Assembly (NCBI GenBank): GCA_963731735.1
Contig: CAVSWO010000002.1
Span: forward strand, 529-64,528
Direction of reading: 5' to 3'
DNA: 64,000 bases
Origin: Candidatus Kerfeldbacteria bacterium
Lineage (GTDB): Bacteria > Patescibacteriota > Patescibacteriia > SBBC01 > CAIJZX01
Under the pieces are notes generated by a model. The model ran no database searches. It was not told where the DNA came from and saw nothing but the letters and a program-made list of their open reading frames with translations. Positions 14,211 through 41,500 of this stretch are shown one piece after another. The translations under genes and the position numbers were made by a program. Positions within the stretch are counted from its first letter, which is position 1. Each line of letters starts with the position of its first letter.

Positions 14211-14726
14211 CTATTCCGCCACCGGAGTCCCGGCCCCCAGAGCCGATGTCTCCTCCGGACTGAGTCCCTTGGTCAACAACCGACTGCCGAAGCAGGCCCG
14301 GGTATCGTAACGCCCATCCGACCGGGCATGCAGAAACAATAGGTAACGACCCTGGCCACTGGCAAAATGCAATTCCCCTTCCGTATATTTTTTTGTGTCC
14401 GCGCCGGTCTGATCGGCCAAGGCGGCGATCCGGGGACTTGGCGTGGTCAAGCGGCCGCGATACAGGCGATCCGGCGCAATGATAACATCCGCCCCCGTCG
14501 CAGCCGGCAGGACCGCAAAAACCGATCCGGTGAGGACCAGGTCAGCGGCCGTGAGTTGATCCTGAATATCGGCCGTCGCGCATGATTGTCCATTGACCGT
14601 CACCGAAGTTGATCGGCCCCATACCCACCAGCCCCCAGCCAGCAACACAAGTGCCAACCCCAGCACCCCCAGCGCGAAGCGTCCGTTGGTGGCCGGGGGG
14701 TTAGTGTGGCGATTTCGGATCGGCAT
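14211..14726 (-). CDS. Membrane-anchored hypothetical protein.
   Basis: One TM (FALGVLGLALVLLAGGWWVW); co-oriented with its neighbours. Confidence 0.45.
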   Translation of the reverse strand: MPIRNRHTNPPATNGRFALGVLGLALVLLAGGWWVWGRSTSVTVNGQSCATADIQDQLTAADLVLTGSVFAVLPAATGADVIIAPDRLYRGRLTTPSPRIAALADQTGADTKKYTEGELHFASGQGRYLLFLHARSDGRYDTRACFGSRLLTKGLSPEETSALGAGTPVAE

Positions 14727-16212
14727 ACCGTTCAACCATCCGACCAAGTTGCTTGGCCAGTCTGCGAGTCAGCTGGTGCTTCGGCACCCGCCACGACCAA
14801 TTACCACGAATCGTGCCCGGACGATTCAGGCGGGCGGACGATCCCAAACCTAAGACATCTTGGATGGACACCATCGCCACCCCGGCTTGACTCTTATAGA
14901 CCGCCTCAATGCAACGCCAGTTCAACCGGCTGGTCGAGCCAAAATAGTCCTTGATGCGTTGCCGCTGCTTGTGGGTGGCCTCATCGCGCCACCAGCCCAT
15001 GACCGTGTTGGTATCATGCGTCGAGGTGTAATAATGAAAATCCGGCTGAACCGCTGTCGGGTGATGAATATTGTTATGCATCCAAACCCAGCCGAATAGG
15101 AAGACTCGCATGCCGTTGAGTCCATATTGCTGTCGCAGGCGTTCGGCGTTGGGGCTATACAACCCCAGATCCTCCACCATGAACGGCAGCTTCGGCCAGC
15201 GGCGTTTGATGCGCTGGAGAATTGCGTTGCTCGGGGTATTGACCCAGTGTCCGCTGCGCCCGTCTTTGGCCCGAATCGGAATCCACCAGGTATGGTCATA
15301 GCCGCGGAAATGATCTATCCGTAAAATATCGTAATGCTTGAGTGATTCGCGGATGCGCTGCAGCCACCAAGCGAAGCCTTCGTGCTGATGGGTCGGCCAC
15401 CGATAAACCGGGTTGCCCCATTTTTGTCCGGTGCTCGAAAAAATATCGGGCGGCACGCCGGCCACATATTTCCGGGTGTGATCCTTGGAGATCATAAAGT
15501 GCCGACGGTGGCTCCAAACCTCAACGCTCTCAAGCGGCGGATAAAACGGCAAATCGCCCATGATTTGAATTCCCTGTTTGTGGGCGTAAGTTTTCAGATC
15601 TTGCCATTGCATAAAAAACACCCACTGCATATAGGCATAAAATTTTTGCCGGTGCAGAATTTTTGGCGTTACGACTTTCATGGCCCGGGCTGGGGTGTGA
15701 TAGGCTTTCGGCCATTCGTACCAGCGGTGGTTTCGAAACGTTTGTTTCAGGGCCGCGTACAAACTGTAATTGGCCAGCCATTCGCCCTCGGCCTTCACCC
15801 AACGTGCAAAGGCTCGTCGGTCGGTCGGTCGGCCTTTGGCTTCAAACCACTCAAAGGCCTCGAATAATTCGCTTCGTTTCTGGCGCGTTAATTTTTTGTG
15901 CTGGATTGGCTGGTGACCATAGCGTTGTTTGAGGACAGGGTGATGCGGTAACAAACCTCGGGCCACCATGTGTTCAAAACTGATCAGACGCCAGTTACCA
16001 GCCAAGCTCGAGAGCGACGCATACGGCGAACCGACGTGATCGGGTAAAGTGATCGGCAGGACTTGCCAAAAACGCTGTCCGGCCGCCGCCAGCCAATCAA
16101 CAAAGTCATAGGCCACCGGTCCCAGATCGCCAATCCCGGACCGACCAGGCAGCGAGCGGATGGCGCAAAAGACACCGGCTGAACGTTTCATTTTGGGGTG
16201 GGATTTAGACAT
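14701..16212 (-). CDS. malQ: 4-alpha-glucanotransferase (amylomaltase, GH77), copy 1.
   Basis: GVFCAIRSLPGRSGIGDLGP...YASLSSLAGN is the GH77 N-terminus; DHFRGY catalytic region. 503 aa. Confidence 0.9.
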   Translation of the reverse strand: MSKSHPKMKRSAGVFCAIRSLPGRSGIGDLGPVAYDFVDWLAAAGQRFWQVLPITLPDHVGSPYASLSSLAGNWRLISFEHMVARGLLPHHPVLKQRYGHQPIQHKKLTRQKRSELFEAFEWFEAKGRPTDRRAFARWVKAEGEWLANYSLYAALKQTFRNHRWYEWPKAYHTPARAMKVVTPKILHRQKFYAYMQWVFFMQWQDLKTYAHKQGIQIMGDLPFYPPLESVEVWSHRRHFMISKDHTRKYVAGVPPDIFSSTGQKWGNPVYRWPTHQHEGFAWWLQRIRESLKHYDILRIDHFRGYDHTWWIPIRAKDGRSGHWVNTPSNAILQRIKRRWPKLPFMVEDLGLYSPNAERLRQQYGLNGMRVFLFGWVWMHNNIHHPTAVQPDFHYYTSTHDTNTVMGWWRDEATHKQRQRIKDYFGSTSRLNWRCIEAVYKSQAGVAMVSIQDVLGLGSSARLNRPGTIRGNWSWRVPKHQLTRRLAKQLGRMVERYADPKSPH

Positions 16213-17701
16213 CGGTCGTCGTCAGTTTTCGTAAACGTCGAGCGAGGGCTGGTGTACAGGCCTTGACCGGTAATCGCCAGGACCAATTCCGTTCAATCGT
16301 GCCGGGCAGATTCATCCGGTCGCGCGTCCCGCGACCGAGCAGGTCTTGGATTTGGATCATGGCCGCGAAACCGCGGCTGCGGTAGACCGCCTCAATCAGC
16401 GCCCAGTGCATACTCCGATGCGGCGGTAAGAAGGCCTTGACCCGCTGCCGTTCGGCCGCGGTGGCTTCATCACGCCACCAGCCCATGATGGTGTTGGAGT
16501 CGTGGGTCGAGGTATAAAAGTAATAATCAGCGGTGACCCGCGCCGGTTGATGTATGTTCGTCTGCGGCCAACGCCAGCCAAATTGGAAGACGCGCATCCC
16601 GCGTAATTTGTAAGCGGCGCGAATCAAGTCGGTTTTTTTTGAGTAGAGTCCCAGATCTTCGACCAGGAACGGACGGGCTGGCCAGCGGCGGACTAAACCC
16701 GCTAGCAGGGTTTTCCAGGGCGTCCTGACCCAATGGCCGGCCCGGCCATCAGTCGCTTTGGCTGGGATCCACCAGGTGTGTTCATAGCCGCGAAAATGGT
16801 CGATGCGGAGCACATCGTATAATCGCAGCGCTTGTCGGATGCGGCCATACCACCAGGCAAAGTCAGTCCGACGATGGGCTGGCCAATCAAAAACCGGATA
16901 GCCCCATTTTTGACCGAGGTCGGTAAATAATCCCGGCGGGACCCCGGCCACAAAAATTGGACGGCCGCGGTAATCAACTTTGAATAATTCCGGATGGGCC
17001 CATACGTCGACACTGTCGTGCCGGACGTAAAACGGCAGGTCACCGATCACCCGTAAACCCTGACGGTTGGCGTAGCGTTTCAGTTCCCCCCACTGCTGGA
17101 AAAATATCCACTGCATATAGGCGAAGAAGTCTTGGCGCCGGCGCAATTCGACCGACAACGAGCGTTGGGCGGAAACCGGATTTTGATAGCGCGGCGGCCA
17201 ATCGCCCCACTGGCGCCCTTGGTGGGCTTCTTCTAAGACCGCGTAGGTGGTGTATGGCGCCAACCAGCCGCGTTCGGCCTGACGCCAGCGTTCAAAGGCG
17301 CGGTGTTGGGCCGAAGTTCCGCCGGCTTGGAAATATTCGAACGAACGCTCCAGCAGTTTTTTCTTGGTTCGCTCGACGGCATCGTGATGAATGCGAGTAC
17401 TTTGGAGCCGGCCCGGCCGCCAAGCGGACCGCGGTAACAATTGCTTTCGGACCAGGAGTTCCGGACTAATTAATTTCCAGTCCCCGGCTCGGCTGGACGA
17501 CGAGGCGTACGGCGAACCGAAGGCATCCGGTAGCGTCAGCGGTAAAATTTGCCAGTAGCTTTGCCCGGCGGCGGCTAGCCAGTCAACAAATTGATAGGCG
17601 GATGGACCAAAGTCACCAATCCCGCCGCGGCTTGGCAACGAGCTGACCGCGCAAAATATCCCGGCTCGGCGCCGTCGGTTTGAACGTCGGATCTTAGGCA
17701 T
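16205..17701 (-). CDS. malQ: 4-alpha-glucanotransferase (GH77), copy 2, a diverged tandem paralog.
   Basis: GIFCAVSSLPSRGGIGDFGP... and DHFRGYEHTWWIP. 498 aa. Confidence 0.9.
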   Translation of the reverse strand: MPKIRRSNRRRRAGIFCAVSSLPSRGGIGDFGPSAYQFVDWLAAAGQSYWQILPLTLPDAFGSPYASSSSRAGDWKLISPELLVRKQLLPRSAWRPGRLQSTRIHHDAVERTKKKLLERSFEYFQAGGTSAQHRAFERWRQAERGWLAPYTTYAVLEEAHQGRQWGDWPPRYQNPVSAQRSLSVELRRRQDFFAYMQWIFFQQWGELKRYANRQGLRVIGDLPFYVRHDSVDVWAHPELFKVDYRGRPIFVAGVPPGLFTDLGQKWGYPVFDWPAHRRTDFAWWYGRIRQALRLYDVLRIDHFRGYEHTWWIPAKATDGRAGHWVRTPWKTLLAGLVRRWPARPFLVEDLGLYSKKTDLIRAAYKLRGMRVFQFGWRWPQTNIHQPARVTADYYFYTSTHDSNTIMGWWRDEATAAERQRVKAFLPPHRSMHWALIEAVYRSRGFAAMIQIQDLLGRGTRDRMNLPGTIERNWSWRLPVKACTPALARRLRKLTTTDV

Positions 17702-26181: not shown

Positions 26182-26706
26182 TCAAACGCGATAGCGGTAG
26201 ACCACCACCCGGCCCTCGGGTTTCTCCCGGGCTTCCGGTGTCCATCCGGCAATTGAAAAGACTGCCGAAATAATTCGCGTTCCCGGCCGGAGTTCGCGTT
26301 TGAACTTCGGACCCAATTTTTTCATAGCCTCGGGCGTCAAAAAGCAAAATACCACATCGGCTGCCGACAAGTCTTGGTGAAAAAAATCCTGCAGCCGGAT
26401 CGACGCGCGCGTCCGGAGTCCGGCCGCCGCGATTCGCATCCAGGCCGCCAACCAAACTGGCAATGACAGCTCATACCCGATCGCCCGCAGGTTCGGGAAG
26501 CGCTTGGCCGCGGTGAGCAGAATCCGTCCGTCACCGGCCCCTAAATCCACAATCGTTTCGCCGTCCTTGAGCGCGGCCATGGTTAGCATCCGTTCCACGT
26601 CTCGACTGCGGGTTGGAACATACGGTGCCGCCCGCCAGGCACCCCAAGCGGTCGTGATCGCAGACACAACGACCACCAGTAATACGACCAGCCAGATCAG
26701 ACTCAT
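26182..26706 (-). CDS. Class I SAM-dependent methyltransferase with an N-terminal TM helix.
   Basis: IVDLGAGDGRILLTAA motif I. Confidence 0.7.
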   Translation of the reverse strand: MSLIWLVVLLVVVVSAITTAWGAWRAAPYVPTRSRDVERMLTMAALKDGETIVDLGAGDGRILLTAAKRFPNLRAIGYELSLPVWLAAWMRIAAAGLRTRASIRLQDFFHQDLSAADVVFCFLTPEAMKKLGPKFKRELRPGTRIISAVFSIAGWTPEAREKPEGRVVVYRYRV

Positions 26707-29246
26707 GTGCCGCGCGGTTCAGTCATCGGCATCGGAGCCGCCGCCACAGCTCCAAGCTGCGTGCGGGATAAAATTTCTTGTTCGACATAGGCTCGATCTT
26801 TGCCGTACCGTAATCGGGCGTATTCCCGAATCGCTTCAGCCATCCGCGGGTGGCCCGGTTGCGGCGGATAGGTTTGTAAATGAAATGGCGGCGCTTGGGT
26901 ATTATTAATCAGTAACCGGATGTAGGCGGTGTAGCGTTCTTGATTGACCAGGTCGAAAGCCGAGAAGGTCGGCTCAAATTGTTTGGCTAATATTTCGGCA
27001 TCCTCGACACCAACCCGGAAGGCGATCATCGTGCCGACGTTCCCGAGTACCGCTTCTTGCACTTTAGCATCACCAGCTTGGACCAGCTGTCCCATGTATT
27101 GATGGGCCATGGTCAGGTTCAGCCGGTATTTTCGCGCTTCGGATAAAATGGTGGCGATCGAGTCGGTGATAAAATTCTGAAACTCATCCAGGTAGAGATA
27201 GAAGTCCGGCCGCTGGTCTTCCGGCACGTTGGTCCGGGCCAAGGCCGCCATTTGTAACTTCGACACAATAATCAGGCCCAGCAAGTTGGCATTGACTTCG
27301 CCGACTTTGCCTTTGGCCAAATTGACCAGCAGAATTTTTCGGCCATCCATAATCTCCCGGAAGTTAAATCCCGAGCGCGGTTGACCGATGATATTCCGCA
27401 TCATGGCATTTTCCACGAACCGCCCGACTTTCGAAATCAAGTAGCCCAGCATTTCGGATTTATGGAAATCGGAGGTCTTGGCCATTTCCTTTTCCCAGAA
27501 AGCCCGGACGACTGGGTCTTTAACCTTGGCGACCTTGGCTTGCTGAAAAGCTTTATCCGTGAACATCCGCGGAATATCGGCAATCGTACCCGGATGCTCT
27601 TCGTCTTCCATTAGGGTCAGCATGGCATTGCGCATATTGTGTTCGAACATCGGTCCGACCATCTCGGGCGGAAAGAGTTTCATGAAAATCGCAATCATTT
27701 CCTGAACCGCGAAATCTCGCTCCTCCGGCGTTTTCGCTTCGAGCATATTCAAGCCCACCGGCCGTTCGGTATCACCCGGCTCAAACATAATCACATCGTG
27801 CATCCGTTCTTTCGGAATCCCCTCCAAAATATCTTCCACCAGGCTGCCATGCGGATCGACCACGCAGACGCCTTGACCGGACGCAATGTCCTGTTTAGCC
27901 ATCTCGGCCATCAGCACCGATTTTCCGGAACCGGTGGTGCCGACGATGTAGACATGGCGCCGGCGATCTTCCGCCGCCAAGCGAATTTGGTGATCTTCGC
28001 CACGATACAGATTGTGTCCCAGTAAAATGCCCTGGACCGGTAAATCTGCCGGCGCCCCGGCGCGTTTGGCCGCCAGCCATTCAATATTCGGGGCCGGCGT
28101 GTCCGGCAACGGAAAGTGGTATAAGCTGTTGACTTCCTCACTATTGAGAATCATGCCGTTCTGCGGGCGGAAGTGCCGATAGATGAAATCGTGAATCATC
28201 TGGCCGCCGTGAGCAATCGCGCGCGGCTTGAAACCGTTGCCCGAGTCGATGGCCGTAAACTGACTGAAGGCGTTGATAATATTTTCCAGGTGTATCCGCA
28301 CGTTGCGTTCATTCGGTGAAGCGGTCACGATCCGGATGTTGACGTCAAAGCCCGGCTTGCCGGCCTTGTCTTCCAGCGAACGCACCAAGGATTGTTCCAT
28401 CGGCGTTAATTGATGAGCCCCGCCGTATGCGTAGTCTGACTGTTTGGGCGTGGATTTGAGCGAAGCCGTCAGGAATCCGGTCATTGAGCTCCCCGATGTT
28501 TTGGCCGGTTGGCCAGCCTGCATCCGGTGGGCCAGCGCTTTGCCGGCCCGTTGCCAACCGGCCGACTTGGGACGTATCAAGAGTTGGATAGCCGCCCCTT
28601 CGTCTGGCTGCACTTTGCTCATAACATTCGCAATCGCGTAGAGCGGATCGCTTTCAAGTTGCTTGTAGGTCCGAATCGGATAAGCGGCTGGTTTCGTCAG
28701 CCGCATGGAGGTAGCTAAAATATGCGTTTGCGAGGCAAACAGATTATAGTCTACGACTTCCTCAATCTGGGCGTGCGGATACTGAGCTTGAATCTGGAGT
28801 TCAACCAATTGCCGCAGATCGCGCGGGACGCCCAGGTAAAAATGAATTCGCCCGTCGTGCGCGACCAGCTCCAAAGCCAGGTGTCGCGGCGTGCTAAACC
28901 AGAATTGATGCCAAGCTCGCGCCAGCGGGTTGCCGGCTTGATTCGGCCGCAGATTCCCGAGGGTGATAAACAGCGTTTCAAATCCTGCTAAGACTTCTTG
29001 CCACTCCTTATGCTCCAATTCTTTTCGCCAGGATTCTTTGGGTAAGCGCACTTTCAGCACCAAATATTCCAGGGCGGACGGAATCAACCGTTGCCGCTGT
29101 AACCACCAGCGCAATCCAAATACCACCCCAAGCACACCGAGTACTAACCCTAACCCAACCCACAGCCACGTCAATTGCGTAGCGGCTTGATGGGCCGCGC
29201 CAGTCAGCACGTTGGTATCTGGATTAAGACCCTGGGCGAGTAGCAT
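26703..29246 (-). CDS. VirD4/TraG/TraD-like type-IV coupling-protein-family P-loop ATPase (membrane-anchored).
   Basis: N-terminal TMs and Walker A VYIVGTTGSGKS. 847 aa with conjugative-coupling-protein-like architecture. The family call rests on pattern, not on alignment. Confidence 0.55.
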   Translation of the reverse strand: MLLAQGLNPDTNVLTGAAHQAATQLTWLWVGLGLVLGVLGVVFGLRWWLQRQRLIPSALEYLVLKVRLPKESWRKELEHKEWQEVLAGFETLFITLGNLRPNQAGNPLARAWHQFWFSTPRHLALELVAHDGRIHFYLGVPRDLRQLVELQIQAQYPHAQIEEVVDYNLFASQTHILATSMRLTKPAAYPIRTYKQLESDPLYAIANVMSKVQPDEGAAIQLLIRPKSAGWQRAGKALAHRMQAGQPAKTSGSSMTGFLTASLKSTPKQSDYAYGGAHQLTPMEQSLVRSLEDKAGKPGFDVNIRIVTASPNERNVRIHLENIINAFSQFTAIDSGNGFKPRAIAHGGQMIHDFIYRHFRPQNGMILNSEEVNSLYHFPLPDTPAPNIEWLAAKRAGAPADLPVQGILLGHNLYRGEDHQIRLAAEDRRRHVYIVGTTGSGKSVLMAEMAKQDIASGQGVCVVDPHGSLVEDILEGIPKERMHDVIMFEPGDTERPVGLNMLEAKTPEERDFAVQEMIAIFMKLFPPEMVGPMFEHNMRNAMLTLMEDEEHPGTIADIPRMFTDKAFQQAKVAKVKDPVVRAFWEKEMAKTSDFHKSEMLGYLISKVGRFVENAMMRNIIGQPRSGFNFREIMDGRKILLVNLAKGKVGEVNANLLGLIIVSKLQMAALARTNVPEDQRPDFYLYLDEFQNFITDSIATILSEARKYRLNLTMAHQYMGQLVQAGDAKVQEAVLGNVGTMIAFRVGVEDAEILAKQFEPTFSAFDLVNQERYTAYIRLLINNTQAPPFHLQTYPPQPGHPRMAEAIREYARLRYGKDRAYVEQEILSRTQLGAVAAAPMPMTEPRGT

Positions 29247-29736
29247 GCGGATCGTGGGGCTGGCGCAAGGCCAGCAGTTTGTCGGTTTTAATTTTGGCTT
29301 CTTGCTCGAGGAAGAATTGGTTGACGCCCGGAATGATCTTCAGCCAGTTAACAATCAGGTCAAGAATTTTCTTGGTTTGAACTTTGGTCTGTTCCAAAAG
29401 GCCAGCCACTTTTTCAGCCGTGGCTTCGCCCAGACTGCGAAATTGCGCTTGGGTGGCTGGATCAAGTTTTTGATAGGTATCTTCCAGCCCATCCGAAAGT
29501 ACCTGTTCAACTTCTTTCACGAATAAACTTTCCGGGGCGGTTGGCGCCTCGGGCGTGGCCGCCGGCACCGGGGGTGGAACAGTCGGCGTGTTTGGTTCGT
29601 GTTCTAAAAACTCCGGTTTCCATTCCGGTTGTTCGGCTGTTTCCCGAGACTGCTCCGGCGCCGGCGGCATTTCCGGCGCGGGCATTGGTGGGTGCTCCGG
29701 TTTGGCGGGTCGTAGCGGTGATTCGGGCATGCGCAA
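29224..29736 (-). CDS. Pro/Glu-rich hypothetical protein with a C-terminal helical domain.
   Basis: 170-aa ORF immediately upstream of and overlapping the VirD4-like gene; the N-terminus is low-complexity. Confidence 0.35.
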   Translation of the reverse strand: MRMPESPLRPAKPEHPPMPAPEMPPAPEQSRETAEQPEWKPEFLEHEPNTPTVPPPVPAATPEAPTAPESLFVKEVEQVLSDGLEDTYQKLDPATQAQFRSLGEATAEKVAGLLEQTKVQTKKILDLIVNWLKIIPGVNQFFLEQEAKIKTDKLLALRQPHDPHATRPGS

Positions 29737-29884: not shown

Positions 29885-30253
29885 ATGAAAACGTTCGTTC
29901 ATTCCATCGTGATGGTGGTGGTTTCGATCACCCTCATCGTCAGTACCGTCGGGTGTGTCGGGCAGCAACTGCTCGGACCGCCCGAGAAATGCGCCGTCTA
30001 CTTCATCAACAATCTGCCGGACCGGATCATCCTGTACTCCCCGGACAACAAGATCACCGAACTCGGACCGAACGGTATGTATCATCTGATGCTGCCCACG
30101 TCGGTCGAATCGTCCTTCCGGTGGACGTATCCGGACGGTCGCGGCGGACGAACCATCAGGTTTACGCCTGATGCCGAACTGGGCGATGCCGTCGGACCGA
30201 ATGGGTTCAAAACGGACACCATCGTCTACGCCTCTGGCGCAGTCATCCGATAG
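29885..30253 (+). CDS. Lipoprotein, hypothetical.
   Basis: Strong SD AGGAGGAAGTCATG, then a signal peptide with the lipobox-like STVGC. Confidence 0.7.
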   Translation: MKTFVHSIVMVVVSITLIVSTVGCVGQQLLGPPEKCAVYFINNLPDRIILYSPDNKITELGPNGMYHLMLPTSVESSFRWTYPDGRGGRTIRFTPDAELGDAVGPNGFKTDTIVYASGAVIR

Positions 30254-30263
30254 GAGGTTCGCG

Positions 30264-30722
30264 ATGCGTTTCATGCAAGTCAGTTTGGCCAGCATGCTGC
30301 TCGTGGCCCTGACCGGTTGCGCCGCCAATTGGCAGTCGATGGGAATCGGACTTTCCGGTTCTCCGAATCCGCCGTACGTGCACGCCGATCTGCCGATCGC
30401 GCAGGCGCTGCAGGTGTTTTCGACGCCTCGACTTGAGGTGCGCGACTGCAACGGCGGTTGGCCGACGGTCAACCAGCGCTGGTTTCTCAGCGGTACCCAG
30501 GGTGCGCAAACGTTTCGTCTGGTTCCCGGCGGTCGAGTTATCTCGGCCGAAGCCAACTACGACGGGCGGAAGATCCGACTGGGTAATGGTCACTGGGAGT
30601 TTTCAGTTCGTAACTTCCGAGACGGTGGCAACCGCTTACTGATTGTCCTGCTGACGATCCAGGAACCGGGCTACGCGCCGCGGTATTACGAGCTCGACTG
30701 TCTGGTATTCAATGGATACTAG
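30264..30722 (+). CDS. Lipoprotein, hypothetical.
   Basis: SD AGGAGGTTCGCGATG and the lipobox LTGCAAN. Start taken inside track ORF 30171..30722. Confidence 0.7.
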   Translation: MRFMQVSLASMLLVALTGCAANWQSMGIGLSGSPNPPYVHADLPIAQALQVFSTPRLEVRDCNGGWPTVNQRWFLSGTQGAQTFRLVPGGRVISAEANYDGRKIRLGNGHWEFSVRNFRDGGNRLLIVLLTIQEPGYAPRYYELDCLVFNGY

Positions 30723-30757: not shown

Positions 30758-30796
30758 AGAGGCGACACGAAGTCTGTGTCGCCTCTTTCTTTTATT
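30758..30796 (+). terminator. Rho-independent terminator.
   Basis: agaggcgacac-gaagtct-gtgtcgcctct followed by ttcttttatt. Confidence 0.8.
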
Positions 30797-30804
30797 CATA
30801 AAAG

Positions 30805-30833
30805 TTGACAAAGAGTCAAAAACGTGCTAAAAT
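30805..30833 (+). promoter_or_regulatory. Consensus promoter TTGACA-N17-TAAAAT.
   Basis: TTGACAaagagtcaaaaacgtgcTAAAAT. Confidence 0.7.
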
Positions 30834-30873: not shown

Positions 30874-31602
30874 ATGGCGCTGAAAGAAATCCAAACAGCG
30901 GCTGTTCGCTTGGTACACGTGACTGATCCGAATGATCGGGATGTCGCGACGCTCCAGCAACGCTTTGCACTCCATCCTCATGACGCTGAGGCGATTTTAT
31001 CCGTGCATGAAGCGAATTCGATCCGACCGTATCGGGATTATGTCCACGCCGGTTGGCTGTGGCCGAACTATGATCGGGATTACAAGGACATCACCTTGGA
31101 TGAAGTCAGCGTTATCACCGGTCCGGCTACTCTGATTCTGGTTGACCGATCGAAAGCCGATTGGATGCAGGCCTTTATTGATCGCCGAATGCAACCGGAC
31201 CAGGTCGATTGGCAGGCTACGCCCCTGACGCTGCTCGGCGAACTGCTGATCCAACGCGCCCGCGAAACTGAACGCGAAGCAGAAATTTTCAGCCAGCAAG
31301 TCGCCACCTCAATCGGCGACCGTGACGCGGTGCTCTACGGCCAGGCCCTACTCGGATTATCAGACAGCCTGGAGCAGTTGGCTGACCATGCCGCAGCTCA
31401 AGGCGAGCAGGATGGTTTGGAGCTGTTACGGATTGCGGCGCATCGATTGAATCACCGGGGCCAACAACTCCTGGCGCTCCGCCGCCAAGCGGTTCGCCAG
31501 CCGCAGGCCAGTCCCTTCGTCCTGCCTAAAGTTGTCCACGGCTATGCGGTCGCTTCGGTTATCACCGCCCTGCTGGTCTTGGGTTTTATGATTGGACGCT
31601 AA
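30874..31602 (+). CDS. CorA-N-terminal-domain-like protein with a single C-terminal TM and no GMN motif.
   Basis: LVHVTDPNDRDVATLQQRFALHPHDAEAIL resembles the CorA cytoplasmic hPLxxED segment, and the protein ends with one TM. Confidence 0.45.
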   Translation: MALKEIQTAAVRLVHVTDPNDRDVATLQQRFALHPHDAEAILSVHEANSIRPYRDYVHAGWLWPNYDRDYKDITLDEVSVITGPATLILVDRSKADWMQAFIDRRMQPDQVDWQATPLTLLGELLIQRARETEREAEIFSQQVATSIGDRDAVLYGQALLGLSDSLEQLADHAAAQGEQDGLELLRIAAHRLNHRGQQLLALRRQAVRQPQASPFVLPKVVHGYAVASVITALLVLGFMIGR

Positions 31603-31603
31603 C

Positions 31604-31738
31604 ATGAAAAAGACGCAAACCAAACTCACTGAACCAACGCTGGCCTTAAAAATTTCGGTCGGCTTCTTATTGGCCACCGGCATCGCCAGTTTACTTTTAG
31701 CAGCAATCGGGACGGTCTTAGTCTGGATCCGCGCCTAA
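31604..31738 (+). CDS. 44-aa single-TM peptide.
   Basis: Manual read: MKKTQTKLTEPTLALKISVGFLLATGIASLLLAAIGTVLVWIRA. The ATG lies 2 nt after the upstream stop. Confidence 0.35.
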   Translation: MKKTQTKLTEPTLALKISVGFLLATGIASLLLAAIGTVLVWIRA

Positions 31739-31747
31739 ACTTTCGTT

Positions 31748-32782
31748 ATGCAACTCCTCGTCGACCAACTCACCACACCCTCCGGACTGCTGCTGCTGTT
31801 CGGCTTCGCCGCCATCTTCATGTTTTTCGGCGTCGTCTTGCTGCGTGAATCAAACCGGGAAAAAATTCGCGGTTCGATATTGCATCTCTACTCCCAGGAC
31901 CTGACCGCCCTGGCCCGTCAAAATAAACTTGATCCGGTCATCGGTCGCGAACATGAAATCAATCGGGTGATTCAAATACTTTCGCGCCGAACGAAAAACA
32001 ATGCAGTCTTAGTCGGAAACTCCGGGGTCGGAAAAACCGCCATCGCCGAAGGCTTGGCGATCAAAATTGTGCATGGCGAAGTGCCGGGTCCGATTCGCAA
32101 CAAGCGGATTTTGTCGCTCGACTTATCCGGCTTAGTGGCCGGTACCAAGTACCGTGGTGAATTTGAAAAACGTCTGAAGGCGATCATGGATGAAGTCATC
32201 GCTTCGCAACGGGAAATTATTTTGTTTATCGATGAGTTACACACCTTAGCGGAAGCCGGCGAAGCCAGCGGCGCGATTGACGCGGCCGATATTTTGAAAC
32301 CGGCCTTGGCCCGCGGCGAACTGCAAGCCATCGGCGCGACCACCGAACAAGAATATCAAGATTACATTATGCAAGACGTGACGCTTGAACGCCGCTTCCA
32401 ACCGGTCATGGTGAATGAACCGGATGAAACCGAGACGCTGGAAATTTTGAAAGGTTTGCGCAGTCGCTACGAACAACATCATCATGTAAAAATTGATGAC
32501 GCGGCATTATCGGCGGCGGTTACCACCGCGGACAAATTGTTACCCGACCGTCACTTCCCGGATAAAGCGATTGACGCCATGGATGAAGCCTCGGCTAAAG
32601 TTCGCTTGGCCGCTATTCAAACTGGAAATCACCAAGAAGTTCCGCACGTCACCGCCAACGACGTGACAGGCGTGCTCGAAGAATGGGCCCGTGACCTTGC
32701 CTGCTTTGCGCAGGATCACGAGCCGAAAGGTCGAGCTCCGGCCGAGGGATCGGTTCACTCCCCCGCCCCCGGAGATAACTAA
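31748..32782 (+). CDS. Membrane-anchored AAA+ ATPase equivalent to the ClpA/B/C D1 module only (no N-domain, no D2).
   Basis: N-terminal TM, then [53 protein letters not shown] (Clp D1 hallmark) and Walker B ILFIDELH. 344 aa. Confidence 0.75.
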
Positions 32783-32845: not shown

Positions 32846-33037
32846 ATGGAACAATCTATGAATCCGGCGGTTCCGATGGATCCGCCCCAGCCGACGCCGA
32901 CTGAACCTTCGACTCCGACGATGAAACACGACCACTGGTTTGTCCAGATGGTCGGCGGCTTAACCATTGCCAACACGATTGTGTCGGCTCTAGCCATCTT
33001 CTGGGTCTTTATGGAATTCGGCCTGCCAACGGCCTAA
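32846..33037 (+). CDS. Small membrane protein, hypothetical.
   Basis: 63 aa, Pro-rich N-terminus then a TM helix; followed by a terminator. Confidence 0.35.
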   Translation: MEQSMNPAVPMDPPQPTPTEPSTPTMKHDHWFVQMVGGLTIANTIVSALAIFWVFMEFGLPTA

Positions 33038-34518: not shown

Positions 34519-34695
34519 ATGTCTGCAAACTTTTGGCATTCATTGCCACGGCCAATCCTGGCGCTCGCACCGATGGAAGGGTCGAGCCGGTCGGCCGTAG
34601 GCCGAGCACATAAACTGCTTCATGTGCGACCGGCGAGACGGGCGCGGCGATGCTTCGCAGGAGCCGACGCGCCCCGGAAGGATTCATTGTCATGA
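34519..34695 (+). CDS. 58-aa ORF whose first 21 residues copy the Dus N-terminus (MSANFWHSLPRPILALAPMEGS...), upstream copy A.
   Basis: Manual translation. Its stop TGA overlaps the next ATG (ATGA). Confidence 0.4.
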   Translation: MSANFWHSLPRPILALAPMEGSSRSAVGRAHKLLHVRPARRARRCFAGADAPRKDSLS

Positions 34696-34874
34696 GTAAA
34701 GATTTTTGGAAAAAGTTACCAAAGCCAATACTAGCTTTAGCCCCGATGGAAGGGTCACGGCGGCCGATAGAGCGAGTGAACTGCTTCACTCGCGTGCCGC
34801 CGCGACGGGTGACGCTATGTTCCAAGGGAACGAGCGGCACCCGGGCCCCTGGAATTGGAGCGAGCATTTCATGA
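34692..34874 (+). CDS. 60-aa ORF with the Dus-like N-terminus (MSKDFWKKLPKPILALAPMEGS...), copy B.
   Basis: SD-like GGAAGGA upstream and an ATGA overlap with the dus start. Its N-terminal codons differ from copy A mostly at synonymous sites. Confidence 0.45.
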   Translation: MSKDFWKKLPKPILALAPMEGSRRPIERVNCFTRVPPRRVTLCSKGTSGTRAPGIGASIS

Positions 34875-35891
34875 ACAATTTTTGGAAATCACTCCCACGG
34901 CCAATCCTGGCGCTTGCTCCAATGGAAGGGGTCAACGACACCGCTTTCCGGCAACTGTGTAAACAGCACGGCGCGGATTTGGTGTATACCGAATTCGTCG
35001 CGGCCGACGCGATTGTGCACGAAGCCAAACGTACCATGGGTCGCTTGCGATATGACCCGGCAGAACAGCCGGTGATTGCGCAAATCTTTGGGCGTAATCC
35101 TGAATCGTTTCGGGCGGCCGCCAAAGCGATTGACCAGATGGGTTTTGCCGGCTTGGATATTAATTTCGGCTGCCCGGCTCGTAAGGTAGTGCATCGCGGA
35201 GAAGGCGTGGCCCTGCTGCGCGAACCGGCATACGCGCGCCAGCTGATCGAAATCGCGCTCGAGAGTGTGACGATTCCGGTTTCGATCAAAATCCGGACCA
35301 GTATTCGGGCCGAACGGAAAGAAGTTCAAGACGGCGCCGAAAACCACACCGCCCTGGATTTTATTGAGGCCGTCGGAGATTTACCGATCGCAGCAGTAAT
35401 GATTCACGGCCGCGCTTTCGAGCAAGGTCATCAAGGCGATGTCGACACCGCCATGATCAAAGCCGTCAAACAACACTTCAACGGTCTGGTCTTAGCCAAC
35501 GGCGGGATATTCACTCCGGAACGGGTGGTCAGTATGCTGCAGGAAACCGGTGCCGACGGCGTCGGCATCGCGCGCGGGACCTGGGGCAGTCCCTGGATTT
35601 TTTCCCAAGCCCGGCAGTTGCTTACGACCGCGCGATTATGATCCGGTTTCCTGGGAGACGATCAAGCAGACCATGCTTGAGCATGCCCGGCTGAATTTTG
35701 AACTCAAGGGCGAGCATGGACTGGTCGAATTACGGAAACATCTGGCCAAGTATATTACCGGCTGGCACGGCGCCCGCCATTTCCGAGCCCAGGCAGTTCA
35801 GGTCAAAACACTCAACGATGTCGACCAACTCGTACAAGACATTGAAGCGCGCCGTGAAGTAGCGGCAAAACAAAAAACGGATTACAGATGA
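34871..35891 (+). CDS. tRNA-dihydrouridine synthase (Dus family), with a 1-nt frameshift in a CGCGCG run near 35629-35634.
   Basis: MNNFWKSLPRPILALAPMEGVNDTAFRQLC... is a Dus TIM-barrel. The C-terminal helical domain (DYDPVSWETIKQTMLEHAR...) continues in the +1 frame as ORF 35550..35891. Confidence 0.75.
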
Positions 35892-37829: not shown

Positions 37830-38945
37830 TTACTTGCCCCACTCCAATTTTTCAGCCGGGGCAGTATCATGGACCACGTGCAAAATACGGAGATGGCGAT
37901 ACAACCAGACCAACAGCCAACCAATCCAGGTGGCCGCGAATTGAAAGACGCCGGTTAGGATTTTCAAGATGAAAAACAGACCGAGGGCCAGCAACCACGG
38001 AACTACCGAAACATATTTTTTCACATACCGGTCGTATTGGCGGTTGACCAGTTCCGTCAGAAAAGAATGAATGGTCTGGGTATCACCGATATTTTGATTA
38101 AATTGATCGCTCAAAGCCTGCCGGATATTATCCGCAACTTGGGCCCGGGCCTGAACCAACTCTTGCTCCAGTTCAGATTCAAATTGCTGTCGCGATTCGT
38201 TCGGATCAATGGTGATATCGCTCGAAAACCCTTCGATCCCGCCCAGCCGATCATTGAGCGCCTGCTGTTTGTCGAGGCTGCTGGTTAACTGATCAAATTG
38301 GATGTCGTCAAGCAATTGATGGGCGGGCGGAATTTCTGTTTCGACTAGTTTGCTGAGCGTATAGTCCGGCTGGTAGCCGTCGATGAAATTTGGCAGGAAG
38401 CGTTCGATGACCGTCACGGCTTGGTCTGACAAATGCTGGCCCAACTCTTCGGGCGTGGAACTGGTTCCGCGGAGTTGCTGGTAATACAGTGTCGATACAC
38501 TCAACATCAAGAGCGTGACCATCAGCGGTAACGCCCAGCCAGCCGTCAAATGCGGTTTGACCAACAGCCGACTATGCGCGTCGCTGACAAAACGCTCCAG
38601 TGACCACCACAGCACCAGCCAGGTAAAGACCAGCACCCCAAGCGTCAGCCAAGTTAGCGGAAAAAATATCAGCAGCGGCAGGGCTGCCAGCAGCGCTCCC
38701 ACCAATCGGATCCAGCGCGCGCTGGCCACAAATCCGCTGGTCGTTAAGCCGCCCAGCCATAATCCAAAAGCGAAAAACCCGAAGATAATGAAGAACAGTA
38801 AATTCGGCAGGCTGGCGGTGGTGAAAGCCAGGTGGCCCTGGAGCGTTTGACTGACCACATACCACCAGCCGGCCGCGGCCGCCATACTCGGCGCCCAAAA
38901 CCACAGCAGTTTCGGGTTCCAGGGATTTTGTACCTCCGCCAGCAT
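37830..38945 (-). CDS. Polytopic membrane protein, hypothetical.
   Basis: 371 aa; N-terminal half TM-rich, C-terminal half soluble. Confidence 0.5.
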   Translation of the reverse strand: MLAEVQNPWNPKLLWFWAPSMAAAAGWWYVVSQTLQGHLAFTTASLPNLLFFIIFGFFAFGLWLGGLTTSGFVASARWIRLVGALLAALPLLIFFPLTWLTLGVLVFTWLVLWWSLERFVSDAHSRLLVKPHLTAGWALPLMVTLLMLSVSTLYYQQLRGTSSTPEELGQHLSDQAVTVIERFLPNFIDGYQPDYTLSKLVETEIPPAHQLLDDIQFDQLTSSLDKQQALNDRLGGIEGFSSDITIDPNESRQQFESELEQELVQARAQVADNIRQALSDQFNQNIGDTQTIHSFLTELVNRQYDRYVKKYVSVVPWLLALGLFFILKILTGVFQFAATWIGWLLVWLYRHLRILHVVHDTAPAEKLEWGK

Positions 38946-39376: not shown

Positions 39377-41500
39377 TTATGGAGCCAGCTCGCCAGCCGG
39401 TAATTTGCTTGGGCCTCCGCCGCCGCCAGATCCACTGGTGCAAAGGACTGGCTTAGTCAGCAGTAAATCTTCATAGGGCTGTCCTTTGGTATCATAGTAG
39501 AAGATCTTGTACCCATCACCGGTTGATGGCGTATAGCTGAAGGCCGGCAGGCACAGGGTAGTATTTATCGGAGTTGGCGCCACGTCACTCTCGGCCGTAT
39601 ATCCTCCCTGGAAATTCAGTTTGAGGTACGGCACATGGACGGGCGTGGTAATTGAACTGTCAACTACCGGCTGCACCATCAGCGGTTCAATTGTTCCGGA
39701 AGTGGTGGTCGAGGCGGAAACGGATTGGCTCGGGAAATGTATACTCCCTAACTGGTAGGTCCGCGCAAAGTTAAAGTTGAAGGTGCCTTCAAAAGATCCG
39801 GGATTGCCATCCGCGACGGTTGCGTTCGTAAAGTGAGTTACGTGGAGACCACGGTTGTAGCTCTGGGTGCAGCTGGTCTTAAGCGCGCGGTTGGTCAAGA
39901 ATATATCAGTGTACGGTTCGCCGTTTTGGTCGAAGTAGAAGGTGGTGTCACCTTCGCCCGTCGTGCCATTCAGGCTGTAGCTCGGGGTACAGGCCGTCAC
40001 ATTAAACGTCTGAGACGGTACGTTTGGATCAGCGCTGACCCAAAGATGCCCGGCTAAGTGCATGATCGTTTGAGGCACAATCACGGAACCCTCGATGTTT
40101 CCGGCTGTCGCATGAATGCCAAATGGTCCAATCGGGTTATAGGCACTGTTGTAATACGGTCCGGTTCCGTCAGCACTTAACCCGTACAGCAGGGTCTGAT
40201 CTTGGTACAGGTCGAAGTGACCCAGGCTGAAGTTTGATGGATCGGAGGCAATCACTTGTGACATGAGATGCAGGTCGGTAAAACTTGAAACCCGCAACAT
40301 GCGTTCACGTTTGGTCACGCAATCTTCGGTCACGACTGGCTGGGTTAAGAAGACATCGGAATAAGCGTTACCCCGGGTGTCAAAGAAGTAGCGGGCCGGT
40401 ACTTCGCTTTGGGTGACATCAACGGATGGCATACACAGCGTGGCTTGCTGTGATTCCCCCTGGTAGGGCGCGCCAGTGATTCGTATCAGCGCTTCGGGAG
40501 TCGTGTAATTGTCACCGAAGGTGAATTCCGGCATCAAGGTCAGCGGGGTGTCGCTTGGATAATCAACCACTTGGCTGCCATACGAAAAACCGTTGGCGAA
40601 GTTGTACAATCCAAGGTTAGCATTGCCGACTTGGAGGATATTCAGCGAGTGCGATAGTGTGCTCGGCAAAAACGAACCTTCCGTATTCGTGACGCTGGAA
40701 AATTTCAGTGACCGGTTTTTTATATCATCACAAGATTCGGACGTAGTTCGATTGGTTAGTTTACTGTCAGTGTAGGTTGAGCCATCGCTGCCAATATACA
40801 AACGAGATTCCGAGCTCTGGCCGATACACAGCGTCAAATAATCCGGACCCGAAGTTGCGTCCCGCATGTAACTAATAGTCACCATTTGGGCTGGAAATCC
40901 GAGCGGAGGATCTTCAATGGAAAATGGTGTAGCTTGTGCAGACGCCTCGGGTATTAAATATTTTTCAATCGGAGAACGATGACTGGGTGCCATGGCGGTG
41001 TTGCCCGGAGTCAACTCTATATAGACTGGGTAGGCACTGACCGGTACCTGTGCACTGGCTTCAGGTATCAACCATTGAGCGATTGTTGAACGACCGCTGG
41101 TCTCTTGATTGAGCGGGGGAAGCATGGAGACGGGTTGTGATTCAACATTTGGCGTAGCCTGAGACTCTCCCGCCGCCGAAGTTTGTGAATAAAACGTGTA
41201 CTGGCTATTGCCGACTTTGGCTTTGTAATACAGCGAAGCAAAAGCCTGATTTTGGTCCATCATCGAAACCGCATTAGAAATCACCGTGACTTTTAAGGGC
41301 TTATTTTTCGTTCCACCGCCTCCATTCCCGGAATCAAGCAATTTGGGAAAGGCCAACATCGCAAACCCCATAGCCAGCGCGCTCATGCCGATGGCCGTAC
41401 CTAAAAAAATACGGGTGGCGCTTAAGGCGATCCCCGTTGAGGTGGTTTGCTGGGTTGCTGACGAGACCTGATTCTTATCGGTATCGATGGTCAGTCGCAT
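39377..41500 (-). CDS. Large membrane-anchored or secreted surface protein with four Cys-bracketed internal repeats.
   Basis: N-terminal TM, duplicated YLIPEASAQ, and four modules of the form TLC...(Y/F)(Y/F)(F/Y)D..G.(A/P)Y.D.(F/L)LT......C. Gly-rich C-terminus. Confidence 0.6.
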   Translation of the reverse strand: MRLTIDTDKNQVSSATQQTTSTGIALSATRIFLGTAIGMSALAMGFAMLAFPKLLDSGNGGGGTKNKPLKVTVISNAVSMMDQNQAFASLYYKAKVGNSQYTFYSQTSAAGESQATPNVESQPVSMLPPLNQETSGRSTIAQWLIPEASAQVPVSAYPVYIELTPGNTAMAPSHRSPIEKYLIPEASAQATPFSIEDPPLGFPAQMVTISYMRDATSGPDYLTLCIGQSSESRLYIGSDGSTYTDSKLTNRTTSESCDDIKNRSLKFSSVTNTEGSFLPSTLSHSLNILQVGNANLGLYNFANGFSYGSQVVDYPSDTPLTLMPEFTFGDNYTTPEALIRITGAPYQGESQQATLCMPSVDVTQSEVPARYFFDTRGNAYSDVFLTQPVVTEDCVTKRERMLRVSSFTDLHLMSQVIASDPSNFSLGHFDLYQDQTLLYGLSADGTGPYYNSAYNPIGPFGIHATAGNIEGSVIVPQTIMHLAGHLWVSADPNVPSQTFNVTACTPSYSLNGTTGEGDTTFYFDQNGEPYTDIFLTNRALKTSCTQSYNRGLHVTHFTNATVADGNPGSFEGTFNFNFARTYQLGSIHFPSQSVSASTTTSGTIEPLMVQPVVDSSITTPVHVPYLKLNFQGGYTAESDVAPTPINTTLCLPAFSYTPSTGDGYKIFYYDTKGQPYEDLLLTKPVLCTSGSGGGGGPSKLPAGELAP

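Follow-up and report, generated by a model that had tools for sequence, protein, structure and literature searches.

To our knowledge, the Clp/Hsp100 proteins described so far are either two-tier machines (ClpA, ClpB, ClpC, ClpE, ClpL, ClpV and ClpG) or single-tier proteins with a D2-like ATPase ring (ClpX, HslU and Skd3). Clp/Hsp100 rings carry their N-domain above the entrance of the D1 pore, and the loop by which ClpA and ClpC dock onto ClpP sits in D2. In eukaryotes, a membrane-anchored AAA protein, Msp1/ATAD1, acts as an extractase of tail-anchored proteins (PMC7018516, PMC5633344). Here we describe an operon of four genes, A to D, in a stretch of 64,000 nucleotides from Candidatus Kerfeldbacteria (assembly GCA_963731735.1, contig CAVSWO010000002.1, positions 529 to 64,528; hereafter the window). 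Its third gene, C, encodes a single-pass membrane protein with a complete ClpC-type D1 module. A first-pass annotation had placed this arrangement outside the common Clp/Hsp100 types, and we come to the same view, given that C has no D2, no N-domain and no M-domain.

That C runs from a transmembrane (TM) helix straight into a Clp D1, with neither N-domain nor D2, had been proposed from the sequence alone; hidden Markov model (HMM) searches, PDB matches, an AlphaFold2 (AF2) model and tblastn all agree with it. C matches AAA and AAA_lid_9 and no other Pfam family. Clp_N gives no Pfam match, and residues 1-43 are a TM helix. The NCBIfam models for ClpB, ClpV, ClpA, ClpG and ClpK match C through their D1 segment only, the ClpB model (TIGR03346) at positions 154-399 of 853 (expectation value, E, 1e-114), and the best PDB sequence match is to residues 164-410 of B. 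subtilis ClpC (E 6e-93). A local alignment with a full-length ClpC (locus L019) covers C 34-289 and ends where the M-domain starts; by alignment, the D1 of C is equivalent to ClpC residues 164-413. Beyond it, C 298-315 aligns to the ClpC helix just past the M-domain (PEVGENEIADIVSEWTK), with a score of 40 against 25 +/- 3.7 for shuffled sequences, a match that is modest (z ~4) yet correctly placed in three different ClpCs.

The AF2 model of C, built from a 59-sequence alignment (predicted local distance difference test, pLDDT, 88.6; predicted template modeling score, pTM, 0.79), shows one continuous helix from residue 11 to 41, made up of the TM segment (~11-33) and a basic juxtamembrane stretch, and joined to D1 by a hinge of 2-3 residues. 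At the M-domain site there is a short, variable loop of seven residues (293-299) between the PDKAID...VRL helix and a closing helix (303-323, pLDDT 95-98). The tail that follows (324-344), which includes K327-G328-R329, is disordered. Foldseek aligns the model with the D1 of ClpC, ClpC1 and ClpB over 270 columns at 57-58% identity and a root-mean-square deviation (rmsd) of 2-3 Å, more columns than the 249 residues that precede the M-domain site in C.

The ATPase motifs are all in place: Walker A at G90-T97 (GNSGVGKT), the pore loop K134-Y135-R136, Walker B at I158-E163, sensor 1 at T198/T199, the arginine fingers R215/R216 and a sensor-2 region, R268...PDKAID. Residues K96, Y135, D162, E163, T199, R215, R216 and R268, by which we judged AAA+ competence, are invariant among the 59 aligned members. 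By its sequence, then, nothing that an active AAA+ module needs to thread substrates is missing from C, which also has a membrane anchor. The positive-inside rule, applied to the acidic or neutral N-terminus and to the RESNREKIR stretch past the helix, predicts an N-out anchor with D1 in the cytoplasm.

Nothing of the rest of a Clp protein was found nearby. When three full-length ClpC-type proteins were compared by tblastn with all six frames of the 64 kb, no N-, M- or D2-domain was found in the window; only 31850-32620 was matched, and the D2 halves gave a weak P-loop match in dnaX alone. The C open reading frame (ORF) itself ends 50 residues past D1. Of the features of class I Clp/Hsp100 proteins, C has the D1 signature (KLDPVIGR..., AAA_lid_9) but not D2, Clp_N or the M-domain, and is therefore not a ClpA, ClpB or ClpC but a relative derived from D1. 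Since D2 is missing, so is the IGF/L-type ClpP-docking loop, and without an M-domain there is no DnaK/MecA control point. No peptidase match was obtained in C for the M41 zinc-peptidase domain, a feature of FtsH, so C is not an FtsH either. C is a cleanly excised D1, with a TM helix for the N-domain, a seven-residue loop for the M-domain, and D2 gone.

The listing of C homologues holds 120 proteins of 299-367 aa, 58-100% identical to C, the sole exception being a fragment of a two-tier Clp; at least 117 are full-length members of 314-367 aa, the homologues in this length range being 58-80% identical to C, and 117 were used in a motif census. Where names are given, they are 'ATP-dependent Clp protease ATP-binding subunit [Candidatus Kerfeldbacteria]' and 'AAA family ATPase [Patescibacteria group]'. 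The N-terminal hydrophobic helix, the Walker A sequence GxSGVGKT and the pore loop KYRGEFE are present in 117/117 members, and the arginine-finger motif LERRFQ and PDKAID in nearly all of them. Columns G90, S92-T97, K134-E140, D162, E163, R215, R216, R268 and P271-K273 are invariant in the 59-sequence alignment. Subclade 1 (335-367 aa, at least 63% identical to the window's C) has a conserved C-terminus, W313..D316-L-x-C319-F320....K327-G-R329; subclade 2 (314-346 aa) lacks the KGR. The DL.CF motif in this C-terminus was considered as a free docking peptide and rejected, as AF2 puts it inside the ordered closing helix 303-323. Within subclade 1, conservation reaches at least 94% along one face of the TM helix (P11, G13, F20, A21, F24, F27, G28 and L31) and likewise at R33-E34 and G42-S-I-L45, which exceeds the needs of a passive anchor.

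A scan of species-representative genome contigs with C added three further D1-only loci (L015-L017; related loci are referred to by such numbers). All other matches were canonical two-tier ClpC, ClpB and ClpE proteins of other phyla, with D1s 50-65% identical to C, and the scan neither widened the phylogenetic range nor revealed paralogues within a genome. As far as seen, the family is restricted to one lineage of the candidate phyla radiation (CPR); in the NCBI taxonomy, Kerfeldbacteria fall within the Parcubacteria group of Patescibacteria. Two of the new loci, L015 (CAYLHT010000015.1) and L017 (CAZFGG010000002.1), come from metagenome-assembled genomes labeled 'uncultured Gammaproteobacteria bacterium' yet bear a Kerfeldbacteria-type A-(B)-C-D unit with C 73-74% identical, and these labels are probably wrong. 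Separately, WWE3 (L020, 6001-6810) and Saccharibacteria (L023, 6001-6753) encode a two-tier Clp ATPase of ~702 aa with a D1 ~60% identical to C, in which a CxxC...CxxC zinc ribbon (a ClpE/ClpX-like N-terminus) replaces the N-domain. This protein is a candidate for the closest full-length relative of the D1-only family.

The operon and its boundaries are as follows.

30758-30786, + strand: upstream terminator, a 12-bp stem then a T-run, which ends a lipoprotein-like gene and marks the 5´ boundary of the unit
30805-30833, + strand: sigma-70-type promoter, TTGACA-17-TAAAAT, 11/12 consensus matches, with an extended -10 TG (TGCTAAAAT)
30874-31602, + strand: gene A, 242 aa, with one TM helix at the C-terminus after a CorA-derived cytoplasmic domain
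31604-31738, + strand: gene B, 44 aa from ATG (alternative TTG at 31592), a tail-anchored TM peptide
31748-32782, + strand: gene C, 344 aa, an N-terminal TM helix and a complete ClpC-type D1 AAA+ module
32846-33037, + strand: gene D, 63 aa (or 59 aa if the second ATG is used), with a C-terminal TM helix
33056-33082, + strand: strong downstream terminator, a 12-bp stem with 8 G-C pairs and a T-run, which closes the unit at its 3´ end, ahead of cysS

The first-pass annotation had described three tightly packed genes behind a consensus promoter. Promoter and ORFs are where it had put them, with 1 nt between A and B and 9 nt between B and C; as a three-gene unit, the description holds for A, B and C and missed the fourth gene, D. 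The interval from C to D yielded no terminator on the + strand. All four ORFs are called as genes on the source contig, each unnamed, and neither the leader nor the intervals between genes match an Rfam family at E <= 1. A promoter resembling TTGAC.-17-TGCTAnAAT is recognizable upstream of A in 13/13 loci that have A; in loci lacking A it lies upstream of C, close to it in L007 and ~125 nt away with a TGTTACAAT -10 in L077. Most related loci also have a terminator-like hairpin with a T-rich stretch upstream of the promoter. Across 12 loci, the A/B/C junctions range from a 4-nt overlap (ATGA) to a gap of 37 nt, despite saturated synonymous sites. A-(B)-C-D is a lineage-specific operon of Kerfeldbacteria-type Patescibacteria with its own conserved promoter, and we regard the anatomy given here as nearly certain.

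Gene A had been likened to the N-terminus of CorA, without the GMN pore motif. By HMM the likeness is weak: the Pfam CorA match has an E of 2.6e-5 and 24.1 bits (cut-off 27) over profile positions 7-141 of 292, the TIGR00383 score is 22.2 bits, below a threshold of 200.75, and PDB sequence matches to Thermotoga maritima CorA (TmCorA) reach E ~0.06. In the AF2 model of A (pLDDT 91.2, pTM 0.80), residues 1-106 form an alpha/beta domain and residues 117-200 three helices; a linker of lower confidence (201-218), flexible and rich in Pro, leads to a TM helix (219-241), with which the stalk is not continuous. Foldseek matches this model to TmCorA with a probability of 1.00 (E 1.8e-10, TM-score 0.63-0.65, ~215 columns), and the CorA call is thus not spurious. 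The model and Foldseek bear out a CorA-like A without GMN, but extend the likeness beyond the N-terminus: A is predicted to have the CorA fold over nearly the whole cytoplasmic domain.

Where A departs from CorA is in the pore. It has one TM helix, not two, with a conserved GYAxAS motif, and its C-terminus reads ...LVLGFMIGR. A word-based search found a single homologue and an exhaustive HMMER search 48, namely ~40 cluster representatives of 215-245 aa and a few marginal ordinary CorAs (305-320 aa). GMN is absent from the truncated homologues (0/31 aligned) and is found in 4/6 aligned full-length CorAs and also in L005. A40 aligns to TmCorA D89, in a column pinned by D89K/D89R mutant chains and PDB entry titles, which is Asp in 6/6 full-length CorAs versus 1/31 truncated proteins. 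Lacking GMN, the second TM helix (TM2) and the D89 Asp, A is CorA-derived and not a CorA channel. Synonymous sites are saturated among all loci (pS 0.65-0.8), and for this reason non-synonymous divergence (pN) was compared with pS and ORF intactness was considered, rather than dN/dS. The pN is 0.29-0.55 for A, 0.19-0.31 for D and 0.11-0.22 for C; for the closest pair of A genes, pN is 0.29 and pS 0.74. Over such a distance, an unconstrained sequence would not stay open for 220-245 codons with a confidently predicted fold.

Reading ~10-13 kb around C in each of 20 related loci, we found the unit conserved, a point that the first-pass annotation had suggested checking in relatives: in subclade 1, A, C and D stay together, whereas B is often lost. 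In subclade 1 (n=9: the window, L001, L002, L009, L011 and L014-L017), a truncated A lies directly upstream of C in 9/9 loci, and a D homologue (conserved 58-70 aa) lies 41-180 nt downstream of C in 9/9. B is present in four (window, L002, L014, L017) and absent from five (L001, L009, L011, L015, L016), and is therefore dispensable; where it is absent, the stop codon of A touches the start codon of C or overlaps it. Subclade 2 differs from locus to locus upstream of C. L005 and L006 encode a 309-aa CorA with intact IFGMNM and a 53-aa B upstream of C, L078 a 309-aa two-TM protein with FGLGAR in place of GMN and a 62-aa B, and L079 a 280-aa two-TM protein without GMN, a 72-aa B, and a D homologue downstream. 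In its 'GKSGVGKT' sub-group (L007, L077) there is no A, B or D, and the C tails lack the DL.(C/A)F motif. The upstream gene forms a decay series, from full CorA to a two-TM form without GMN, to a one-TM form, to nothing. A stands at the end of this series and is not a new kind of fusion: it comes from a CorA channel that adjoined C in an ancestor, and has kept the cytoplasmic fold and a membrane anchor but lost the pore, the second TM helix and the Mg2+-site Asp.

B has a polar N-terminus rich in Lys, Thr and Gln, the motif K-I-S-V-G-F and a TM helix. L002-L004, L005, L014, L017, L078 and L079 encode homologous peptides of 41-72 aa in the interval from A to C, and the motif K-(I/V)-(S/A)-(V/L)-G-F at the start of the TM helix is common to both subclades. 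The B proteins of L078 (4806-4994) and L079 (4759-4977) carry an extra C-terminal (extracytoplasmic) extension ending in D-R-T-(F/I)-Q-(T/L)-A-P, an ending not found in the 41-53 aa versions. The cytoplasmic N-terminus of D is rich in Pro; the motif HW-x-V-(E/Q)-x-VGG lies next to the membrane, and D ends in a TM helix, the TM region bearing a conserved VGG..A.T.VSALA motif. Its homologues form 63 clusters of 40-74 aa, annotated 'hypothetical protein' and in no Pfam family, and at least 27 of the 63 match a C-family cluster in the length of their longest contig, which points to shared contigs. A, B and D each combine a cytoplasmic N-terminus with a tail anchor; in the window's subclade only 1-6 residues follow the TM helix.

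We suggest, with a probability of roughly 0.4, that C is a membrane-bound hexameric unfoldase or extractase with dedicated tail-anchored partners, the best reading of the sequences. A membrane-tethered unfoldase or remodeler, as the first-pass annotation had it, would fit the anatomy, and the partner it had left blank is narrowed to the candidates A, B and D. In this model, C would form a hexameric ring held at the cytoplasmic face of the membrane by its six N-terminal helices. As a TM helix and a hinge of 2-3 residues stand in for the N-domain, the substrate-entry face would be turned towards the bilayer. ATP hydrolysis would drive the KYR pore loops to pull on the cytoplasmic ends of membrane proteins, extracting or remodeling them, much as Msp1/ATAD1 or the AAA ring of FtsH does, though with neither a built-in protease nor a ClpP-docking D2 loop. 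We put the extractase mechanism itself forward tentatively, by analogy. A, B and D could be dedicated membrane partners of C, contacting it via conserved helix faces as adaptors, regulators or clients, and a physical partnership of A and D with C is slightly favored. Tail-anchored proteins are the class most easily extracted from the cytoplasmic side and also the class that tethers AAA machines (Pex15 with Pex1/6, PMC5762779; Msp1, PMC7018516).

Several points weigh against this reading. The A proteins are only 24-49% identical between loci versus 69-83% for C, and A is fast-evolving. A is gone from one sub-group and B from many loci, so C can work without them. A gene order of ~15 kb, from the TraG-like ATPase to cysS, dus and dnaJ, is conserved as well, and in one lineage with a stable gene order the adjacency of A, C and D is by itself no proof of a functional link. 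The joint absence of A, B, D and the C-tail motif may reflect a single evolutionary loss. CorA is pentameric and AAA+ rings are hexameric, such that a symmetric complex is not obvious, and ClpC needs MecA and its N- and M-domains to assemble, which casts doubt on whether a lone D1 ring could hexamerize and thread.

Part of this evidence would be expected under an alternative that we judge unlikely but take seriously, in which C acts on its own as a membrane-proximal chaperone or ATPase, A is what remains of a neighboring corA in slow decay, functionally unconnected to C, and B and D are unrelated small membrane proteins, their proximity reflecting inherited synteny only. The synteny of the wider neighborhood across the loci examined, the CorA decay series ending in loss, the far faster divergence of A than of C, and the repeated loss of B all fit. 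A relic, however, should not have remained an intact ORF of 215-245 codons in ~40 clusters with saturated synonymous sites, with a fold predicted at pLDDT ~91 and a conserved GYAxAS TM motif. Nor does this account for an A stop that, in every locus, touches or overlaps the start codon of the following gene, or for a promoter that, where A is present, is always upstream of A and never directly upstream of C. What goes beyond synteny is the shared promoter with tight junctions, the retention of a folded A, the conservation of TM faces in C, A and D, and the joint absence of A, B, D and the C-tail motif.

The CorA ancestry raises the question of whether the function is linked to Mg2+, with C extracting or remodeling a CorA-type channel and A as a Mg2+-sensing regulator. 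In Salmonella, FtsH and the small peptide MgtR control the levels of MgtC and MgtA. L005 and L006 have a GMN-intact CorA and a small TM peptide directly upstream of C, and the cytoplasmic domain of TmCorA is a Mg2+ sensor (cf. the PDB titles of D89/D253 mutants). We nonetheless find this improbable for the window: its subclade has no pore motif, no second TM helix and no D89 equivalent, and GMN is already gone in the two-TM forms of L078 and L079. Moreover, one sub-group keeps C without any CorA-like gene, and the leader holds no Mg2+ riboswitch or other Rfam element. With GMN, TM2 and D89 lost, we argue that in the window's lineage the module no longer handles Mg2+ transport or sensing via the canonical site.

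Another possibility to which we give little credence is that C serves as an accessory unfoldase of the adjacent type-IV-secretion-like apparatus, represented by a TraG/VirD4-like DUF8128 ATPase (26703-29246, - strand). ClpV, EccA and Plasmodium HSP101 prepare substrates for their secretion systems, and the TraG/VirD4-like ATPase lies 1.6 kb upstream, divergently oriented, across loci. Against this, the operon and the ATPase gene are transcribed separately, from opposite strands, a terminator and two lipoprotein-like genes lying in between, and the nearby cysS, dus and dnaJ indicate core-genome synteny rather than a secretion island. In addition, the anchor would put the entry face of the ring, not the exit face, at the membrane, the wrong way around for pushing substrates outward.

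C might also be one half of a split Clp machine, contributing D1 and either acting in trans with a separately encoded D2-type ATPase or docking onto a protease encoded elsewhere. C is without a protease-docking element, and our D2 search spans 64 kb of a genome of 822,872 bp, which leaves this account some room; yet there is no D2-like sequence in those 64 kb, C has its own anchor and its own conserved C-terminal helix and tail, and no second Clp-type gene occurs in the ~10-13 kb around C in any locus, all of which makes it very improbable. Finally, that C is a ClpB or ClpC truncated by an assembly frameshift, or a pseudogene, has nothing but its short length in its favor and is refuted by at least 117 independent homologues of the same length range (314-367 aa) from many samples and assemblers, by the TM helix in all members and the catalytic motifs in nearly all, by a pN of 0.11-0.22 against saturated pS, and by the lack of any N-, M- or D2-remnant in any frame of the window.

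We considered whether the locus is a known anti-phage defense system, with a CorA-type effector or an AAA+ defense ATPase, and rejected this: PADLOC gives C only generic local AAA similarity (IetA, TRIP13, E 1e-7 to 3e-6) and has no match for A, B or D, and the locus is core-genome syntenic. In the neighborhood of the operon, the TraG/VirD4-like gene encodes an 847-aa coupling-protein ATPase (26703-29246, - strand; TrwB_AAD_bind, T4SS-DNA_transf and TraG-D_C, with DUF8128 in homologues) beside a Pro-rich protein of 170 aa (29224-29736, - strand), and the two lipoprotein-like genes (29885-30253 and 30171-30722, + strand) belong to no Pfam family. Among related loci that extend far enough, nearly all have this whole block beside the Clp-D1 operon. 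Downstream, at 34528-34930, a 54-nt segment encoding the Dus N-terminus 'NFWxxLPRPILALAPMEG' occurs in three copies (100%, 70% and 85% identity, spacing 173 and 176 nt), the third being the start of the real dus (ORF 34706-35641, Pfam Dus from residue 70). The pattern suggests that the dus 5´ end was partly triplicated in tandem; Tandem Repeats Finder does not report it.

Elsewhere in the window, two ORFs of 371 and 707 aa beside dnaJ (37830-38945 and 39377-41500, - strand) have no Pfam match at E <= 0.001; L005 has an unannotated 380-aa gene at the same position, between dnaJ and a DUF3467 gene adjoining dnaK. Two adjacent, overlapping GH77 4-alpha-glucanotransferase paralogues of 503 and 498 aa (14701-16212 and 16205-17701, - strand) each match the full Pfam model (E ~1e-137). 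Positions 1-2000, with a G+C content of 0.416 versus 0.49-0.60 in the rest of the window and genes for NAD-dependent sugar epimerases/dehydratases, may be a horizontally acquired cell-surface sugar cluster.

The architecture of C is a new variation within the Clp/AAA+ world, although the proteins are already in databases under generic names; in full-text literature searches we found no description of a D1-only or membrane-anchored Clp, of a CorA-AAA+ operon, or of Clp biology in Kerfeldbacteria. A natural D1-only, membrane-anchored Clp would show what D1 does alone, and C would add a bacterial membrane-tethered unfoldase without a protease. It would also offer a handle on membrane-protein quality control in the CPR/Patescibacteria, whose genomes are reduced and whose episymbiotic biology is poorly understood. 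The CorA series, in turn, is a clean natural case of a channel gene stripped to its soluble domain and still linked to one neighbor.

Among known proteins, the D1 of ClpC and ClpC1 is close to C, with 57-63% identity, the same Walker A and B motifs, KYR loop, arginine fingers and sensor-2, a fold that superposes at 2-3 Å rmsd, and the closing helix of the D1 small domain, which in ClpC comes after the M-domain. Unlike ClpC, C has a TM helix instead of Clp_N, no M-domain and no D2, and is membrane-integral with one ATPase tier; the Walker A sequence is GxSGVGKT in the C family and GEPGVGKT in ClpC. Like C, FtsH is anchored in the membrane at its N-terminus, has one AAA+ ring on the inner face of the membrane and is accompanied by small TM peptides, such as MgtR. 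An ancestral link to a Mg2+ transporter is a further common point, the ancestral CorA-peptide-C order recalling how FtsH with MgtR acts on Mg2+ transporters. C differs from FtsH in having no M41 peptidase, one TM helix rather than two, no periplasmic domain, and membership of a different AAA+ clade.

The counterpart of A is CorA (T. maritima; PF01544), found full-length at the same locus in sister lineages, with which A has the cytoplasmic alpha/beta and helical fold and the HP(L/H)D-x-E motif in common; the TM helix of A occupies the TM1 position. A differs in having neither GMN nor TM2, in the replacement of D89 by Ala or Gly and in its sub-threshold HMM score; furthermore, the flexible Pro-rich linker breaks the A stalk from the TM helix, so there is no continuous pore-lining helix. 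In concept, the unit resembles Pex15 with Pex1/Pex6 (PMC5762779), in which a tail-anchored partner tethers or regulates an AAA+ translocase at the membrane, whereas here C is itself membrane-anchored, the partnership is putative and there is no homology.

Msp1/ATAD1 has the same layout as C, one N-terminal TM helix and a single AAA ring with its entry side to the membrane (PMC7018516, PMC5633344), and acts on tail-anchored proteins; A, B and D, co-encoded with C, are all tail-anchored. Homology between the two is limited to the AAA+ fold: Msp1 belongs to the classical AAA clade, while C, whose best matches are exclusively to Clp D1s, is itself a Clp D1. C, moreover, is bacterial and has fixed partner genes, and its extractase activity is putative. 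A bolder proposal, drawn by analogy and in our view rather doubtful, is that the C family is an undescribed Hsp100 class of single-tier, membrane-integral rings built from D1 only, a bacterial counterpart of Msp1 that would serve as a dislocase for tail-anchored or other membrane proteins with A and D as a co-opted, membrane-embedded adaptor or gate. If this were true, a lone D1 ring would be a working translocase, and the sensor domain of an ion channel would have been recycled as an AAA+ cofactor.

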